DNA from: Minisyncoccia bacterium | GTDB taxonomy: Bacteria; Patescibacteriota; Minisyncoccia; Phycocordibacterales; UBA918 | Direction: 5' to 3' | NCBI GenBank assembly: GCA_964229335.1 | Contig: CAXRCZ010000012.1 | Location: forward strand, 1 to 33,522 | DNA length: 33,522 nucleotides | Shown here: positions 1 through 29,852 of the stretch, piece after piece | How the letters are laid out: the number at the start of each line of letters is the position of its first letter | Numbering within the stretch: the first letter of the stretch is position 1 | Translations under genes and position numbers: made by a program | Notes under the pieces: model-generated | Database searches by the model: none | Told to the model about the DNA's origin: nothing | Seen by the model: only the letters and a program-made list of their open reading frames with translations

Positions 1-90
1 ACGGGAGGAGGTGCGCATTAGCGTTACCACGCACGCGAATGCGTACGTTGAGGTACAGCCTCACCACGCACTCGGCGCGGCCAGCGTTGT

Positions 91-282
91 TCATCCAAGC
101 TTCGCTTGGAAATAGGTTCGAGCGGAATCATAAAGATGCCCCAGAATGTGACTTTCAGTCATAGAACCGCGCTTCGCGCGCAACGAGGACAAAACAAAGT
201 ACGGTGAAAGTGGCTCTGCGGAGCCGTTTTCCGGTGGGGAATGCAACAGCTCGCGAGCGCGCAGGCGGAGGTTCGCCATCAC
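91..282 (-). pseudogene. Duplicated recombinase C-terminal segment with alternative tail (HLYDSARTYFQAKLG); may be a silent cassette or a small protein
   Basis: NLRLRARELL...SHILG is identical to recombinase residues ~464-509, then diverges. Confidence 0.6.
138..275. repeat. Left arm of perfect 138-bp inverted repeat (partner 1861-1998)
   Basis: GCCCCAGAATGTG...GGAGGTTCG (138-275) is the exact reverse complement of 1861-1998; mismatches immediately outside both ends. Confidence 0.95.
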
Positions 283-337
283 GACAATTTCATTCTCGTT
301 CGGTGGAGTGTATTTATCTGCCCAAAGAAAAGAAGGT
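275..337 (-). repeat. Mosaic of short inverted copies of recombinase gene segments
   Basis: Minus strand reads ACCTTCTTTT (=483-492), CTTTGGGCAGA-TAAATAC (=845-863, 1-nt deletion), CACTCCACCGAACGAGAAT (=1108-1126, exact), TGAAATTGTC-GTGATGGC (=1799-1817, 1 deletion + 1 substitution). Confidence 0.9.
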
Positions 338-345
338 TTGTTTTG

Positions 346-354
346 TGATAAGAT
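346..354 (+). promoter_or_regulatory. Extended -10 promoter of recombinase (TG-A-TAAGAT)
   Basis: TGnTAnnnT match about 6 nt before a structured leader starting near 360. Confidence 0.45.
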
Positions 355-359
355 GGAGT

Positions 360-449
360 TGCAACCAGCCGATATAGAAAGCTTTTTCTAATAGCCGTCC
401 TAGGACAATCAAAGTCTTCTTTGGTTGGTTGCACCTAGGGCGGTTATTA
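360..449 (+). promoter_or_regulatory. Structured 5' leader of recombinase
   Basis: 16-bp stem 389-404:434-449 with inner stem 406-414:419-427; competing 13-bp stem 360-372:421-433; the non-Watson-Crick pairs are G-U on the + strand. Confidence 0.55.
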
Positions 450-470
450 AAGTTTTAATATCTTGTTCTT

Positions 471-2063
471 ATGGAGAAACCTACCTTCTTTTTATATGCC
501 CGCAAGTCGACCGATGTCGAGGATAAGCAGGTACTAAGTATCGAAGCGCAGCTGGCGGAGTTGCGTTCGTTTGCCAAGCTGGAGGGGTTAGAGATAGCAG
601 AGGAGTTTGTGGAGAAAAAGAGTGCCAAGATGCCCGGCCGTCCAATTTTTAATGACATGATGAACCGTCTCGAGCGAAAAGAGGCAGTGGGCATTATCGC
701 TTGGCACCCAGACCGCCTCGCACGCAACTCAGTCGATGGGGGACGAGTTGTGTATCTGCTCGACTGCGAACATATTTCGATGCTGAAATTTCCAACTTTT
801 TGGTTTGAAAACACATCACAAGGAAAATTTATGCTTAGCATCGCCTTTGGGCAGAGTAAATACTACGTGGATTCACTTTCAGAAAACACCAAGCGCGGGC
901 TACGCCAAAAAGTTCGTCGCGGAGAATATCCAGGGCTGGCACCAATGGGATATATCAACGACTCGAGGACAAAGACGGTAGTCATTGATAAAAATAAAGC
1001 GCCAGCCATTACCGCGGCATTTGAATACTACGCTGAGGGTGAACATCGACTGGAAGACGTTGCGAACTTTTTGGCGAAACGAGGGATCAAAGCGCGTGGC
1101 GGAAAACCACTCCACCGAACGAGAATTACTTGTATCCTTTCCAATCCGTTCTACACGGGATTGTTTCAGTACGCAGGTGAGGTACACGAAGGTACTCACC
1201 AACCAATTGTGGCAAAGAAACTGTTTGATGAAGTGCAGGAAGTCATGCAAGAGCGCGGGCGACCGCATAAAAATTTTAAAAATGAGCCACAGGCATTTTG
1301 TGGACTGATGCGGTGTGGAGGTTGCGGCATGATGATTACTGCTGAACATAGGGTTAAAAAACAGAAGAACGGAAACGTGCATGAGTATGTGTATTATCGC
1401 TGTACCAAGAAATCAAAATTAAAATGTGATGAACCCTATGTTCGAGAAGAGGAGATAGATAGACAAGTCACAGCGTTACTAGAAACAGTTTCTTTGCCCG
1501 CGTCGTGGGCGAGGCAGTTGGAGATTATGCTGGCGCAAGAGGAAACTGCCTCAACCTACGACGCAACGGAACATCTCAAGGCAAGCAAGGAGCGTGAGCG
1601 GAGGATAGAACAAAAGCTTGAGCGTCTTCTCGATTCATACCTAGAGCAGGATATTGATCGGGAAGTATATCTCGAGAAGAAAGCAGCTTTGCTCAGTGAA
1701 AAGAAGTCACTGCAGGAGAAAAACGCTGCCTTGGAGACGTCCCGAATTGGCTGGCTCGAACCCATGCGAGAGTGGATACAAGTGGCAGAAAACCTGCCTG
1801 AAATTGTCCGCGATGGCACCCTTTTAAAGAAAAAGGTTGCAGCCAAAGAAATCTTTGGCTCGAACCTCCGCCTGCGCGCTCGCGAGCTGTTGCATTCCCC
1901 ACCGGAAAACGGCTCCGCAGAGCCACTTTCACCGTACTTTGTTTTGTCCTCGTTGCGCGCGAAGCGCGGTTCTATGACTGAAAGTCACATTCTGGGGCGG
2001 CTACCGGGAATCGAACCCGAACTTTCGGTACCACAAACCGATGCACTAACCGTTATACTATAG
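471..2063 (+). CDS. Large serine recombinase (resolvase + recombinase + zinc ribbon + coiled coil)
   Basis: YARKS catalytic Ser motif, DRLARN, LSNPFYTG, CGGCG...YYRC...C zinc ribbon, coiled coil; last 21 aa are encoded by the antisense strand of tRNA-His. Confidence 0.95.
   Translation: MEKPTFFLYARKSTDVEDKQVLSIEAQLAELRSFAKLEGLEIAEEFVEKKSAKMPGRPIFNDMMNRLERKEAVGIIAWHPDRLARNSVDGGRVVYLLDCEHISMLKFPTFWFENTSQGKFMLSIAFGQSKYYVDSLSENTKRGLRQKVRRGEYPGLAPMGYINDSRTKTVVIDKNKAPAITAAFEYYAEGEHRLEDVANFLAKRGIKARGGKPLHRTRITCILSNPFYTGLFQYAGEVHEGTHQPIVAKKLFDEVQEVMQERGRPHKNFKNEPQAFCGLMRCGGCGMMITAEHRVKKQKNGNVHEYVYYRCTKKSKLKCDEPYVREEEIDRQVTALLETVSLPASWARQLEIMLAQEETASTYDATEHLKASKERERRIEQKLERLLDSYLEQDIDREVYLEKKAALLSEKKSLQEKNAALETSRIGWLEPMREWIQVAENLPEIVRDGTLLKKKVAAKEIFGSNLRLRARELLHSPPENGSAEPLSPYFVLSSLRAKRGSMTESHILGRLPGIEPELSVPQTDALTVIL
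1861..1998. repeat. Right arm of 138-bp inverted repeat, inside recombinase 3' end, overlapping the tRNA 3' end by 6 bp (TGGGGC)
   Basis: Exact reverse complement of 138-275. Confidence 0.95.
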
Positions 2064-2068
2064 CCGCC
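1993..2068 (-). tRNA. tRNA-His (GTG) with G-1 and encoded CCA
   Basis: Minus strand GGCGGCTATAGTATAACGGTTAGTGCATCGGTTTGTGGTACCGAAAGTTCGGGTTCGATTCCCGGTAGCCGCCCCA: GCGGCTA/TAGCCGC acceptor stem, GTG anticodon, GGTTCGATTCC T-arm, G-1:C73. Confidence 0.96.
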
Positions 2069-7827: not shown

Positions 7828-7875
7828 TGACCGCCCTACAGGTACGTACTTAGGTACGTACCTGTAGGGCGGTCA
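7828..7875. terminator. Perfect 22-bp hairpin containing a GTACGTAC-N4-GTACGTAC motif
   Basis: TGACCGCCCTACAGGTACGTAC-TTAG-GTACGTACCTGTAGGGCGGTCA. Confidence 0.7.
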
Positions 7876-20950: not shown

Positions 20951-23900
20951 ATGAATAAGAAAGTACATGGTCGTGAAAACGACTCAGTGAAAGTAGAAGA
21001 GAGCGCTCCCACTAGTGAGGTGGCATTGCGAGAAGAAGCCGTGCTCAGCTATTGGCGCGAGCAAGATATTTTTAACAAAAGTATAAAACATCCTGCAGGT
21101 ATAGGATTGGAGGGAGACAAGGTGAATGGCGAAGCCGGAGAAGGTGGCCTGGGCCATTTTGTTTTTTATGATGGACCACCATTTGCGACTGGTTTGCCGC
21201 ACTACGGACATATCTTAGCCGGTACTATCAAAGATGCCATTCCACGCTTTTGGACGATGAATGGCTATCGAGTGCGCCGGCAGTGGGGATGGGATTGTCA
21301 CGGATTGCCACTAGAGAATATTGTAGAGAAAGAGTTAGGATTGGCCACCAAGCGAGACATTGAAGAGTATGGCATCAAGAATTTTAATGAAAAAGCGCGT
21401 GGCATGGTGCTACGTTACGCTGACGATTGGCGCGAAATAATCCCACGCTTTGGTCGGTTTGTAGATATGCAAAACGACTACAAAACTATGGATAGCTCAT
21501 ACACCGAAAGTGTCTGGTGGGCATTCAAACAGCTACATGAAAAAGGACTAGTATACGAAGGGTTCAAGACTATGCACCTATGTCCTCGCTGTGGCACGAC
21601 CCTATCTAACTTTGAGGTCAATCAAGGTTACAAAGATATAAAAGATATTGCTGTCACCGTAAAGCTACCACTCCTTGATGAAGCTGGAGAAGTTTCTGAT
21701 ACCAGTTTGCTCGTCTGGACCACTACTCCATGGACGTTGCCGGGGAACACAGTAGCAGCGGTTCATAATGAAATTGACTATGTCACTGTCAAAATTGTCG
21801 TTGAGGGACAAGCAGAAAAAGTAATTGTAGCTAAAAGCAGATTGTCGCAGCTGGGTAATGTTGAATATGAAATTATTGATGAATACAAAGGCGCAGCCTT
21901 AGTGGGTAAAAAATATAAACCACCGTTCCCATGGCTCACAGAAGAAGACTTCAGTGGCAAAGAAAACGCGTGGACTATCTATCACGCTGACTATGTAGAA
22001 GAGGGCGAGGAAGGCACTGGCGCCGTGCATATTGCTCCCGCCTATGGAGAAGACGACATGAATTTAGCCAAGGAGAATGATGTTCCAATCGTCCATCACG
22101 TCGATGAAAGCGGGCATTTCAAACCATTCGTGACTGACTTTGCCGGACAGCTCGTCAAACCACGCGATGATGATGCGAGTGAGGTGACTCACCTCGATGC
22201 TGATATTGAAGTTGTTAAAGCGCTTAAAGAACGAGGAGTGTTATTTAAGAAAGAAAACATCACTCACAGTTACCCGCATTGTTGGCGGTGTGAGACACCG
22301 CTTCTCAACTACGCGACCACATCGTGGTTTGTGGAAGTAACTAAGATTCGTGACCAACTCGTTAGCATCAATCAGACAGTTAACTGGGTACCCGAACACG
22401 TCGGAAAGAATCGTTTTGGCAAATGGTTGGAAGGAGCGCGTGACTGGGCGGTCAGTCGCCAGCGGTATTGGGGAGCACCGTTGCCGATTTGGAAAAATCC
22501 AGAGACAGGGGAGTATAAAGTCCTGGGTTCACTTAGTGAACTACAAGAGTATGTACCAAACCGCCAGAATAAATACTTCTTTATGCGTCATGGCGAGAGT
22601 GAATCAAATGCCAGCAACGTGGTACAAACCATCATAGATAATCCAAATGCCCTCACAGAAACAGGAAAAGAGCAGGTCAAACAAGCAGTCAAACAGCTTC
22701 GGGAGGCCGGTATAACCCGAATCATCACCTCGCCATTTGAACGTACGGTAGAAACTGCCAAGTTACTACAAGAAGAACTAGAATTACCTAACGAAGCTGT
22801 TCAGCTTGATGAAAGATTGCGAGAGATTGCCATCCCAGAACTTGAAGGTGAATCAAACACCAAGTATCGAGAATTAGTTCAAACAGGAAAAGATTGGAGC
22901 CAAGCAAAAACCGCCAATGGAGAAAGTTGGAGTGATGTGCGTAATCGAGTGGGTGATTTCTTGTACGATATCAATACACAGTACGAAAACGAAACCTTAC
23001 TAATTGTAGGACATAACGCACCACTTAGAATGGTGTCGGCCATTACCAATGGAGACAAGTTGACTGAGAAAGACTTTGATCACGACGATGAAGGAGCTCG
23101 TTATGAAAATGCCGAAGTACGCCAGATAGACTTCACGCCGCTTCCACACAACGAGCAGTATGAACTCGATTTTCACCGACCGTATATTGATGAGTTTGAA
23201 CTCTATGAAGATGGGGTTTTGTTGGAGCGAGTACCAGATGTGTTTGATTGTTGGTTTGAGAGTGGCTCTATGCCATACGCGCAACACCACTATCCGTTTG
23301 CGATGGATGAAGCTAATTTTACAAATGAGCATTTCCCAGCACAATTTATTGCCGAAGGACTTGATCAAACTCGGGGTTGGTTTTATTCAATGATGGTGCT
23401 GGGGGTAGCTCTGTTTGAGAAAAGTCCATACGAAAACGTCATCGTCAACGGGTTGGTCTTAGCCGAAGATGGCAAAAAGATGAGTAAGTCTCTTCAGAAC
23501 TACCCGGATCCCATCGAGCTGGCGAACCGCGTCGGAGCTGATTCAATTCGTTTCTACCTATTATCATCACCAATCATTAAAGGCGAAGACCTTAACTTCT
23601 CCGAAAAGGACGTCACCGAACTACAACGCAAGAATATCGGCCGGCTGCACAATGTACTCGCTATGTATGAGATGTACCAGGATGGAACAAAGGCTAACGG
23701 TGATTCAAGAAACGTTCTCGACCGCTGGATTATCACTCGTCTCAACCAGCTCATTTCTGAAGTGACTGATGGGTACAAGAATTACGAACTCGATAAAGCC
23801 ACCAGACCGATTACTGATTTTATCGATGACCTTTCGGTGTGGTATCTCCGTCGCAGTCGAGACCGGCTCAAACACGATGATTTAGACGACAAGCAAGCCA

Positions 23901-24523
23901 CGCTAGCCACCCTGCGGTATGTACTACAAAATCTGGCCAAGTGCATGGCGCCAGCGATGCCGTTTTATGCTGAACACCTATACCAAGCTGTGAAAGGCGT
24001 GACAGATGTCGAAAGTGTGCATCTTACGCGCTGGCCACAGCCAGACACTATTGATACTGAATTACTTGCTCAAATGGAGACTACCCGAGAAATTGTCACC
24101 ACTGCGCTAGAGAAGAGAACCAAGGCAGGTATTAAAGTACGACAACCAATCAAGAGCGTCAGCGGACCACAGCTACCAGAAGAGCTGCAAACGGTCATAA
24201 CCGATGAGTTGAACGCAAAAAGCTACCAAGCAGCCAATGAGGTAGCAATAGATCAAAATCTCACTCCCGAACTCCTAGCCGAAGGAGCAGTTCGAGAACT
24301 TATGCGAGCCATCCAGAGTAAGCGAAAGAATAACTCACTCGAACCAAATGACACCATTGCGCTCACCATTGAGACGAGCGAATCAGGTCAGAATGCTATC
24401 AATGAGCATCAAGCCCTTCTTACAAAAACTGTCGGCGCAGATGCAATAGAATTTACTTCTACCGAAGGAGAGACAATAGTGGCCAATGACTACGAATTCA
24501 CCTTCTCGTTTAACAAACTATAA
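20951..24523 (+). CDS. ileS: Isoleucine--tRNA ligase (type 2-like) with inserted histidine phosphatase domain
   Basis: DGPPFATGLPHYGH, GWDCHGLP, WTTTPWTLP, DQTRGWF, KMSKS; inserted RHGE domain ~22571-23130. Confidence 0.96.
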   Translation: MNKKVHGRENDSVKVEESAPTSEVALREEAVLSYWREQDIFNKSIKHPAGIGLEGDKVNGEAGEGGLGHFVFYDGPPFATGLPHYGHILAGTIKDAIPRFWTMNGYRVRRQWGWDCHGLPLENIVEKELGLATKRDIEEYGIKNFNEKARGMVLRYADDWREIIPRFGRFVDMQNDYKTMDSSYTESVWWAFKQLHEKGLVYEGFKTMHLCPRCGTTLSNFEVNQGYKDIKDIAVTVKLPLLDEAGEVSDTSLLVWTTTPWTLPGNTVAAVHNEIDYVTVKIVVEGQAEKVIVAKSRLSQLGNVEYEIIDEYKGAALVGKKYKPPFPWLTEEDFSGKENAWTIYHADYVEEGEEGTGAVHIAPAYGEDDMNLAKENDVPIVHHVDESGHFKPFVTDFAGQLVKPRDDDASEVTHLDADIEVVKALKERGVLFKKENITHSYPHCWRCETPLLNYATTSWFVEVTKIRDQLVSINQTVNWVPEHVGKNRFGKWLEGARDWAVSRQRYWGAPLPIWKNPETGEYKVLGSLSELQEYVPNRQNKYFFMRHGESESNASNVVQTIIDNPNALTETGKEQVKQAVKQLREAGITRIITSPFERTVETAKLLQEELELPNEAVQLDERLREIAIPELEGESNTKYRELVQTGKDWSQAKTANGESWSDVRNRVGDFLYDINTQYENETLLIVGHNAPLRMVSAITNGDKLTEKDFDHDDEGARYENAEVRQIDFTPLPHNEQYELDFHRPYIDEFELYEDGVLLERVPDVFDCWFESGSMPYAQHHYPFAMDEANFTNEHFPAQFIAEGLDQTRGWFYSMMVLGVALFEKSPYENVIVNGLVLAEDGKKMSKSLQNYPDPIELANRVGADSIRFYLLSSPIIKGEDLNFSEKDVTELQRKNIGRLHNVLAMYEMYQDGTKANGDSRNVLDRWIITRLNQLISEVTDGYKNYELDKATRPITDFIDDLSVWYLRRSRDRLKHDDLDDKQATLATLRYVLQNLAKCMAPAMPFYAEHLYQAVKGVTDVESVHLTRWPQPDTIDTELLAQMETTREIVTTALEKRTKAGIKVRQPIKSVSGPQLPEELQTVITDELNAKSYQAANEVAIDQNLTPELLAEGAVRELMRAIQSKRKNNSLEPNDTIALTIETSESGQNAINEHQALLTKTVGADAIEFTSTEGETIVANDYEFTFSFNKL

Positions 24524-28389: not shown

Positions 28390-29817
28390 ATGTCAGAAAA
28401 ACGAGCTCAGTACATCACCACCACCTTGCCGTATGTAAACGCGGAGCCGCACGCTGGGTTTGCCCTGGAGGTAGTACAAGCTGATACGTTAGCTCGCTAT
28501 TATCGACTACTGGGCCATCCAGTATTCTTTAGTACCGGAACTGACGAGCATGGACAAAAGATTGCGCAAAAAGCTGAGTCGACTGGTCAAACAACCCAAG
28601 CGTATGTCGATCATTACGCTGAGACATTTACTCGATTGAAAGAATCACTTAATTTGTCGTACGACAATTTTATCCGCACTACCGACAGTAATCACATCGC
28701 AGCTGCTCAAGAAATGTGGCGCCGCTGTGCAAACAAGGGTGATATATATAAAAAGAAGTATACCGGCTTGTATTGCGTAGGGGATGAAATGTTTGTCAAA
28801 GAATCTGATTTAGTTAATGGCAGATGTCCCAACCACCCTGACACCGACCCAGTCGAAATCGAAGAAGAAAACTATTTTTTCAAACTATCGAAGTACCAAG
28901 ATAAACTCCTAGCGTATTTTGAAAATGAATCCAGTACAGTGCCAGACTGGCAACGGAAGTGGGCCATAGAATTTGTAAAAAATGGCTTAGAGGATTTAAG
29001 TATTTCACGACAAAAAGACCGCATGAGCTGGGGTGTGCCAGTGCCTGACGATGATTCACAAGTGATGTACGTATGGTTTGACGCCTTAACCAACTATATC
29101 TCCACTCTTGGTTGGCCGAAAGATGATGATACATTTAAGAAATTTTGGGTAGATGGAAAAACTACGCAATTTGCCGGAAAAGATCAGGTTCGATTTCAGT
29201 CAATTATCTGGCAAGCTATGTTGCTTTCGGCAGAAATTCCGCAGACGGACACTGTGTTTTACCACGGCTTTATAACAAGCGAGGGAAAGAAAATGAGTAA
29301 GAGTATTGGCAACGTAATTTCGCCGTCTGAAATGGTTAATCGCTACGGCACCGAGGCTACACGCTATATCTTATTGCGTCACGTACATCCATACGAAGAT
29401 ACTGACATTTCGTGGGAACGAATGGATGAGTGGTATACCGCCAACTTGGTCAATGGGCTGGGTAATTTGACAGCTCGGATTATGAAGATGGCTGAGACCC
29501 ATCTGGAGCCAGAAGATTTTCCGTTGCTTGACCCAGACACACTTGATTTGCCAGATATTATTGCGTTTCAACCTGCCATGGACCATATTTGGACCATGAT
29601 TCAGGGACTAGACGAGCGAATCACTACAACTGAGCCGTTTAAGCTTATCAAAACCAATCCAGACGAAGCCAAACTCATTATGGGAGAGCTACGCGCCGAG
29701 CTGCTACACATCGGTCGCTTGTTGTTGCCGAGCATGCCCGAAACCAGTAACACTATTCGAGCGGCGGTGCGAGCTAACCAGAAGCCAGATAATCTCTTTG
29801 CGCGACTCGATACATAG
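28390..29817 (+). CDS. metG: Methionine--tRNA ligase (no C-terminal tRNA-binding domain)
   Basis: YITTTLPYVN, GTDEHGQK, YVWFDAL, KMSKS. Confidence 0.96.
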   Translation: MSEKRAQYITTTLPYVNAEPHAGFALEVVQADTLARYYRLLGHPVFFSTGTDEHGQKIAQKAESTGQTTQAYVDHYAETFTRLKESLNLSYDNFIRTTDSNHIAAAQEMWRRCANKGDIYKKKYTGLYCVGDEMFVKESDLVNGRCPNHPDTDPVEIEEENYFFKLSKYQDKLLAYFENESSTVPDWQRKWAIEFVKNGLEDLSISRQKDRMSWGVPVPDDDSQVMYVWFDALTNYISTLGWPKDDDTFKKFWVDGKTTQFAGKDQVRFQSIIWQAMLLSAEIPQTDTVFYHGFITSEGKKMSKSIGNVISPSEMVNRYGTEATRYILLRHVHPYEDTDISWERMDEWYTANLVNGLGNLTARIMKMAETHLEPEDFPLLDPDTLDLPDIIAFQPAMDHIWTMIQGLDERITTTEPFKLIKTNPDEAKLIMGELRAELLHIGRLLLPSMPETSNTIRAAVRANQKPDNLFARLDT

Positions 29818-29852
29818 TACGTACTTAGGTACGTACCTAAGTACGTACTATG
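29813..29852. promoter_or_regulatory. Perfect 40-bp palindrome with three GTACGTAC octamers; putative operator
   Basis: CATAGTACGTACTTAGGTACGTACCTAAGTACGTACTATG abutting extended -10 TGGTATACT (29851-29859). Confidence 0.7.

Follow-up and report, generated by a model that had tools for sequence, protein, structure and literature searches.

Why should a recombinase gene be accompanied by an identical, inverted copy of its own 3' end? The question is raised by the window, a stretch of 33,522 nt that starts at the very end of contig C12 (C12:1) in the 741-kb, 13-contig genome of a Minisyncoccia bacterium (assembly GCA_964229335.1), and in which a gene for a large serine recombinase runs antisense into a tRNA-His gene. 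Two inverted arms (138–275 and 1861–1998) enclose this gene. As the original prediction had stated, they are identical (138 of 138 nt complementary), and in a repeat scan of the window they are by far the longest repeat, the next inverted pair measuring 31 nt. We find that they belong to an integrated element made up of a left attachment site (attL), cargo, an inverted attP-type attachment site, the large serine recombinase gene and a right attachment site (attR) at the tRNA 3' end.

The key to this arrangement lies beyond the left arm, in a repeat of which the original prediction had taken no notice. Window positions 1–141 recur without mismatch on another contig (C9:10015–10155, 141/141), where the copy joins a different sequence at the same four-base core. 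Contig C9 therefore ends in attL (B/P', the slash marking the crossover), and the window holds the reverse complement of a whole attP (P'rc/Prc), while the tRNA-His end represents attR (P/B'). The complete order is thus B/P' – cargo – P'rc/Prc – gene – P/B'. Two earlier claims are borne out by these data: the left copy is indeed an intact attP-type end in inverted orientation, its other half being positions 1–141 and repeated at attL, and the tRNA 3' end is indeed an att junction; all three junctions share the core. In the run that is the likely source of the assembly, the P' stretch forms a 246-nt unitig with a depth of 22, compared with about 9 for single-copy sequence, and branches at position 141; the cargo between the P' copies is missing from this assembly. 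The P and P' pairs adjoin at the internal junction, which makes the inner region complementary to both outer ends. Unlike phage-type serine integrase elements, this one retains an intact internal attP in the integrated state. In the seven genus relatives without insertion that were viewed, the tRNA-His genes end without a full CCA, and one of the seven matches the first bases of the C9 flank. Coordinates are given in the table.

Table. Features of the recombinase locus (window coordinates)
Feature	Position	Strand	Remarks
P' arm of internal inverted attP	1..141	-	runs off contig; repeated at the far end of the element (attL, end of C9)
Conserved C-terminal tail codons and stop (HLYDSARTYFQAKLG)	91..137	-	in frame with P arm
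T-loop-like TCGAAC in P'	116..121	-	4 nt farther from the crossover than the tRNA's own
Crossover core of internal attP	138..141	-	tRNA positions 71–74 here; family core 72–74; common to C9, internal and tRNA junctions
P arm, internal inverted copy (left arm)	138..275	-	138-nt repeat
Four abutting splint segments	283..337	+	complementary to 1799–1808, 1108–1126, 845–855 and 483–492, in nested order
Extended -10-like motif, predicted recombinase promoter	346..354	+	3' of the splint segments
Large serine recombinase gene	471..2063	+	530 aa, final 21 residues from tRNA antisense
Conserved intragenic stem 903–916:1063–1076	903..1076		recurs in 28/48 homologues; covariation
Conserved nested intragenic stems 1128–1137:1774–1783, 1211–1226:1483–1498, 1344–1355:1432–1443	1128..1783		stem 1211:1498 in 30/48 homologues, with covariation
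Hairpin at inner boundary of gene P arm	1834..1867		looped out between arm stem and first splint stem
P arm, gene copy (right arm)	1861..1998	+	attR core 1995–1998; supplies tRNA CCA
tRNA-His(GTG), insertion target	1993..2067	-	T-loop antisense TCGAAC at 2011–2016

The layout is not peculiar to this locus. We collected 190 homologous loci (79 from genomes, 80 from metagenomes, 29 from a sample of the order and two viral), some of which represent one record found twice, so that the counts are not those of independent events. The P pair is present in 143 of the 190, of which 35 also have the P' pair within the DNA fetched; the whole layout was recovered in eight of 14 extended regions, four of them in single-contig genomes, and the remaining regions were cut, decayed or rearranged. 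These numbers also dispose of the concern that the arm pair might be an assembly or amplification artefact, the former having been named in the original prediction for the left arm near a contig end. Such a reading could point to the left arm beginning 138 nt from the contig end and to one wholly palindromic contig (C7) in the same assembly. However, the arm pair is conserved in the 143 loci from many assemblies, the internal copy is found in 101 of 109 loci with room for it, both repeat pairs are whole in the single-contig genomes G109, G093 and G047, and independent unitigs retrace the same path. The recurrence refutes the artefact reading, whose probability we consider negligible.

Arms range from 70 to 350 nt within the family and have sharp ends. 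For nine chosen pairs, identity is 98.5–100% within a locus and 71–99% between loci, and the arms of the window, alike at every position, share 77–93% identity with those of the three closest relatives; judged from these sequences the arms evolve in concert. Elements measure 3.2–6.0 kb with 1.0–3.7 kb of mostly unrelated cargo in the 29 that were compared, although longer ones occur. By all-against-all BLAST and inspection of 80 cargo open reading frames (ORFs) from these 29 elements, no shared gene for a reverse transcriptase or an excisionase was evident, nor one for replication or transfer; packaging or conjugation genes were not seen in the 3.2–6.0-kb elements. Nor was there a small gene common to the cargo ORFs of at least 70 aa that could encode a directionality factor; a shorter or host-encoded one may exist. 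In six loci (L005, L007, L014, L023, L027, L079) cargo genes end 0–7 nt from the P' arm boundary, like captured cassettes, and in L066, L071, L074, L075, L077 and L079, which belong to one clade, a 27–30-nt copy of the sequence preceding the gene's P arm stands beyond the internal P' arm, in a crossed rather than nested arrangement.

Carriers are mostly Patescibacteria; other record labels, with binning as deposited, are Bdellovibrio, Myxococcota, Nitrospirales, Omnitrophota, Marinimicrobia and Gammaproteobacteria. Together with the gene set of the window's own genome, this taxonomy speaks for Patescibacteria as its source. A related recombinase (E ≤ 1e-40) is encoded in 83 of 151 sampled genomes of the order, in part of which the layout was examined, and protein clusters matching at E ≤ 1e-100 number 6206 or more. 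A scan of viral contigs gave two partial matches. By these sequence comparisons the element family is widespread in ultra-small bacteria, where it inserts at tRNA ends.

The predicted 530-residue reading frame with its tRNA-antisense end was confirmed, and its product contains the Resolvase (PF00239), Recombinase (PF07508) and zinc-ribbon (PF13408) domains, all above cut-off. The catalytic serine motif is intact, with Y9, R11, K12 and S13 invariant in 29 aligned proteins, and the best matches in the PDB reached E-values of 1.5e-12 by sequence and 8e-16 by fold. A structure predicted for a homologue has long helices at residues 345–427, consistent with a zinc ribbon plus coiled coil, in a model that is weak overall (predicted TM-score 0.45) and poor in the N-terminal domain. 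Its sequence and predicted fold are those of a canonical large serine recombinase. The genome encodes another, less closely related serine recombinase (36% identity) at C4:137469–138584, with no match to the P or P' profile nearby; this gene was not used as a control, having been cut out of frame. Three homologues of 876–908 aa (P0005, P0006, P0008) possibly derive from duplicated or fused recombinase genes.

When the minus-strand frame is followed through the left arm it ends in HLYDSARTYFQAKLG-stop, which yields the 524-residue variant that had been predicted, with 509 shared codons and 15 of its own. When homologue C-termini were compared, YxxARTYF emerged as the tail that is conserved: of 43 loci that are distinct and intact, 41 have it in frame, with synonymously varying codons and a stop mostly 2–5 codons past the motif. 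It follows that expression of the gene in a form joined to P' must take place at some stage. The earlier idea of a tail swap on integration is also supported. In a natural tail-bearing homologue the tail is predicted to form a helix (residues 505–523; block pLDDT, the local confidence score, 87–88, in an overall weak model). The motif accompanies the internal copy in 114 of the 143 loci. Of 121 database proteins examined, 90 carry the tRNA-antisense tail; database entries thus mostly have the wrong tail, and enzyme tests will need the tail-bearing form. For 11 of the 120 homologous proteins listed, the full gene bears the conserved tail, in every case on a contig of at most 5.3 kb, and in L086 attP stands on both sides of the gene, with arms 94% identical. 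These tail-bearing full genes may be free forms, tandem junctions or mis-joins. Four further matches to the tail motif and protein P0100 proved false and were dropped.

How targets are chosen can be read from the junctions. In all 17 complete sets, attL, attR and the internal copy agree at positions 74, 73 and 72 (G + N73 + N72), from which we infer that positions 72–73 are the cleaved dinucleotide. Over 55 loci the TCGAAC motif lies 15 nt from the discriminator base in the tRNA half-site and 19 nt from it in P', where it is likely to be the motif bound by the zinc ribbon. The recombinase family uses at least 15 tRNA types and transfer-messenger RNA (tmRNA), the latter by related recombinases in L173 (genome G127) and L164/L204 (G080). 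On a quick tree, close relatives switch tRNA while the two-base core is unchanged (Asn/Gln, Gly/Thr, Leu/Ala), and cores are clustered (29 changes compared with 50.9 after shuffling, 91 rows).

Two loci carry tRNAs with matching cores on both arms, L150 (Ser/Ser) and L167/L207 (G097:C10; Phe/Leu), so the internal attP can recombine, and their sequences imply chromosome rearrangement through it; a pattern search of G097 for reciprocal junctions of L167 found none with the right core. Such second crossovers are rare (2 of 143 loci) even though a live attP sits beside many matching tRNAs, and this makes it probable that the enzyme with the tRNA-derived tail cannot integrate. Several insertions are stacked at a single site in L001 (6525–6600), L027, L145 and L025, and in L001 a P arm is joined out of frame to the tail-like half-site of another element. 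About 97 nt past attL, C9 has a second GGGCGGC that resembles a tRNA-His 3' end, and the stretch between the two (C9:9918–10015) is 77% like the sequence beside the L001 element, which suggests a remnant of an older stacked insertion.

The spacer between left arm and gene, and the gene itself, hold a further feature that the original prediction had passed over. Positions 283–337 are made up of short stretches, each complementary to a site within the gene; we call them splint segments. Across the family their targets are conserved and follow a nested order, at distances of about 60, 750, 1015 and 1385 nt from the right arm on its upstream side, and in 46 loci spacer-to-gene matches numbered 90 in inverted orientation (14 expected) and 16 in direct orientation (11.5 expected). 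Within the genes of 48 homologues, dereplicated from 68, we counted 451 stems of at least 10 bp compared with 57.9 in codon shuffles, and 46 of the 48 were above expectation; among 102 long ORFs of the bacterium's own genome, taken as control, there were 97 stems compared with 84.4, and the recombinase gene ranked first. Stem 1211:1498 recurs in 30 of the 48, and seven of its 16 pairs occur in at least two Watson–Crick types. Of the six conserved stems that were tested, five scored above every one of 500 row shuffles, a measure of covariation that relatedness inflates because kin are not independent; a count of compensatory cells had been indistinct from slid controls and was replaced by these shuffles. 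DNA folding of 100–2070 gave the same nested tree for both strands, and 276–1275 alone reached z = -11 against 20 shuffles.

The folding does not look like mRNA structure, because G-T pairs do not exceed A-C pairs on the coding strand (26 vs 54 cells, 16 vs 22 distinct, with 53 vs 3 in the tRNA control; 9 vs 10 in a separate count) and because the predicted promoter has the splint segments on its upstream side, both here and in 30 of 58 splint-bearing loci. The promoter-like motif TGnTAnnnT is present in 47 of 85 spacers and in 24% of shuffles, while a two-hexamer promoter scan missed the copy in the window. As far as base-pairing can be predicted, the gene is nested and self-complementary and would be suited to folding as a single strand. 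Between motif and start codon (355–470), and in homologous spacers before many recombinase genes, there is a conserved long 5' hairpin with a loop like TTTAATGGCCGTCT..GGACAAT; it may be a regulatory RNA or an operator, and an Rfam scan of six loci found tRNAs only and no match for the hairpin.

We propose that the internal inverted attP acts as a splint on single-stranded DNA, to which the element's ends would anneal so that attP and the full-length integrase gene are rebuilt without an excisionase; the chances of this proposal appear to us evenly balanced. The process would start from one DNA strand that spans the element and has most likely been imported through competence or else exposed in replication; this strand would fold with both ends paired to the internal copy and the host flanks left as flaps outside the folded element. 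Trimming, filling and ligation by host repair would then produce a closed dumbbell in which attP is restored and the gene is joined to its tail, a step for which no excisionase would be required. After second-strand synthesis, the full-length enzyme would recombine attP with a tRNA or tmRNA end, reading the target through the T-loop and the matching 72–73 dinucleotide. Crossover at the gene-end attP would strip the tail and turn integration off; insertion via the other attP would place an active enzyme beside a live attP, and such insertions would be lost or rearranged. As no reverse transcriptase is evident, the single strand would have to come from DNA, and the host genome does encode ComEC and DprA. 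Going further, it is tempting to speculate, although we hold this to be slightly less probable than not, that we are dealing with a transformation-adapted DNA element that reaches a competent cell as a single strand within a chromosome fragment, folds on its internal attP, is sealed by the host into a dumbbell with a whole integrase gene, can insert into the end of whichever tRNA or tmRNA offers the required two bases, and disables itself. On the same tentative footing, excision enzyme, origin and transfer genes would all be unneeded, and the element would be a DNA-only, serine-recombinase counterpart of DIRS and a main gene-delivery route of Patescibacteria.

Several observations weigh against the splint proposal. 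Both ComEC and DprA occur widely (in 10 and 11, respectively, of 14 control genomes), so their presence does not single out the competence route. The intermediate was not observed, and the contigs of four runs of one study contained no empty-site joint. A double-stranded circle would have two equal attP sites, so the orientation of 106:0 described below would need added selection or a preference in cis. Cargo is not enriched in stems (5.9 per kb in cargo loops and 5.4 in host flanks, compared with 11.4 in gene loops), a subgroup from Saccharibacteria lacks splint segments, the gene's first 600 nt, taken by themselves, show no excess of folding (z -0.2 and -1.2), and the control gene ileS reached z -3.5. 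Some spacers are only 41–70 nt long, too short for a promoter, and the negative result on cargo genes comes from BLAST and inspection of the cargo ORFs.

Other explanations account for part of the data. The original prediction envisaged a self-inverting recombinase in which crossover between the P arms flips 276–1860, adds the conserved tail and switches the enzyme on. Its geometry is valid, inversion would homogenise the arms, and the tail is conserved; yet the tRNA is found at the gene 3' end in 106 of the 143 P-pair loci and the flipped state in none of the 143, as assembled (tRNA at most 15 nt from the arm end by our first rule; L150, L167 and L086 were identified by other look-ups). A rare, transient flip could escape notice in assembled data, and those from the four runs, one perhaps the source, do not resolve orientation through a 138-nt arm. 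Prc and P do not constitute an attP–attB pair, and the switch would offer no account of the long P' pair, the splint segments or the folding along the whole gene. Moreover, helix-turn-helix cargo genes beside the internal attP have one orientation in all of five elements, a small number, so that by appearance the cargo is not freely flipped either, and we regard the switch as improbable. The accompanying suggestion that the small ORF (91–282, 63 aa) encodes a directionality factor found no support, as its start is not conserved: in 61 loci any start codon near the arm occurs in 28, at scattered positions, ATG in three and a Shine–Dalgarno-like site in none, such sites being often missing in these bacteria. 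An ordinary double-stranded cycle, in which the tRNA-tailed enzyme or a host factor excises the element by attL × attR and the circle regains the tail and re-integrates, would agree with the standard site logic of serine integrases (matched central dinucleotide, motif shifted outward in P'), with the 11 tail-bearing full genes on short contigs, with L086, and with an attP junction unitig whose depth in one run is 15.9 compared with about 9, weak evidence from 56 nt. The internal attP would then be a back-up or decoy kept identical by arm recombination, and folding would have another cause. This cycle leaves unexplained, however, why 101 of 109 loci keep the internal copy and why there are sharp-ended arms of 70–350 nt, splint segments and nested stems; the empty site was not seen in the four runs, and tandem junctions, or mis-joining through the repeat, may account for the tail-bearing genes. 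We consider it unlikely, though less so than the other rivals.

The folded single strand could alternatively be the substrate itself, one strand of the fold-back attP being exchanged with the tRNA site and the product resolved by replication. XerCD with CTX phage and integron integrases with attC exchange one strand on folded substrates in this way. A dumbbell with only one duplex attP would give the strict orientation of 106 vs 0 without selection, and the slight lean of wobble pairs to the template strand would fit single-strand use, but that lean is gone in the independent count (9 vs 10). Serine recombinases, moreover, cut both strands and rotate, the present enzyme is canonical by sequence and fold, and from the layout full exchange on a dumbbell would create hairpin-capped chromosome ends; this route thus seems rather improbable. 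A further alternative is an RNA intermediate, as in true DIRS, where a transcript, for example tRNA read-through, would fold and serve as template for a reverse transcriptase of the host. The layout resembles those elements' internal complementary region (ICR), the element begins at a tRNA 3' end, and good folding of the minus strand is obtained under RNA parameters (z -4.7 and -7.3 against eight codon shuffles). By contrast, a reverse transcriptase is not evident in the cargo, stems are almost pure Watson–Crick (1645 cells vs 80 of wobble type), in 11 of 85 loci terminator-like hairpins come after the arm, and the Rfam matches in six loci are tRNAs only, all of which makes this explanation very improbable.

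Several known systems share features with the element. The yeast 2-micron circle has two inverted sites, flips freely by a tyrosine recombinase and replicates, whereas neither flipping nor a replication gene was seen here. CTX phage attP and integron attC form a duplex site by folding back and are likewise served by tyrosine recombinases. Integrases of phage Mx8 and SSV1 are split by their own attP, with the C-terminus replaced on integration. The same is described for ORF13 of phiRSS0, whose gene holds attP (PMC3816273). These are tyrosine-recombinase or XerCD systems and are not known to have an internal spare attP. Large serine integrases of phages and elements (SPbeta SprA/YokA, A118/LI, Bxb1, phiC31) are similar in domain order, sequence and fold, and share the matched central dinucleotide and the motif shifted outward in attP. 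For LI integrase the reported shift of the zinc-ribbon motif is 5 bp (PMC3783163), while ours is 4 nt. Further differences are that here the 3' end of the integrase gene itself contains attP, another intact attP is retained inside the integrated element, a directionality factor is not evident, and at least 15 tRNA types plus tmRNA are targeted.

A parallel in layout is offered by DIRS1, whose ICR carries both outer ends side by side, inverted, inside the element, and is essential for mobility; single-strand annealing, ligation to a circle, second-strand synthesis and integration by the recombinase have been proposed for it (PMC7192593). Our element likewise repeats its outer ends side by side and inverted, but it is bacterial, its internal copy spans about 380 nt, and a serine recombinase is its only such enzyme, whereas DIRS are eukaryotic, RNA-mediated elements with reverse transcriptase, RNase H, Gag, a tyrosine recombinase and an ICR of 88 bp. 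Tycheposons and other tRNA-integrated elements likewise carry cargo, a large serine recombinase being present in 27 of 937, and phiRSM is a single-stranded filamentous phage whose serine recombinase uses a tRNA-Ser 3' end; in the accessible parts of both descriptions (10.1101/2020.12.28.424599 and PMC3816273) an internal inverted attP is absent. Tycheposons are there flanked by direct att copies, many with replication genes and excisionases, and the phiRSM recombinase is small with a 13-nt core. The word 'tRNA' is absent from the main text of PMC10083194, the supplements of which may list such enzymes. Enzyme class and tail swapping were therefore known; for the element layout and the gene-wide folding we found no published description in the open literature, subscription papers lying outside this coverage. 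Few mobile elements of Patescibacteria have, to our knowledge, been described. If the splint model is true, horizontal transfer would have a new route, with DNA folding in place of excision. Whatever the route, these serine integrases appear to recognise the universal T-loop, to select tRNA ends through a core of two bases and to silence themselves on insertion.

Minor observations concern the remainder of the genome. A palindromic repeat based on GTACGTAC occupies intergenic positions in the window (7828–7875 and 29813–29852) and at C7:63343, with single copies on C1, C4, C11 and C13. Contig C7 is a perfect 127-kb palindrome mirrored at its one copy of this repeat type; given this perfection it is probably an assembly artefact that doubles about 63 kb. 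Finally, a 1190-aa isoleucyl-tRNA ligase-like protein is encoded at window positions 20951–24523, in which, judged by eye, there seems to be an insert resembling histidine phosphatases (RHG motif).

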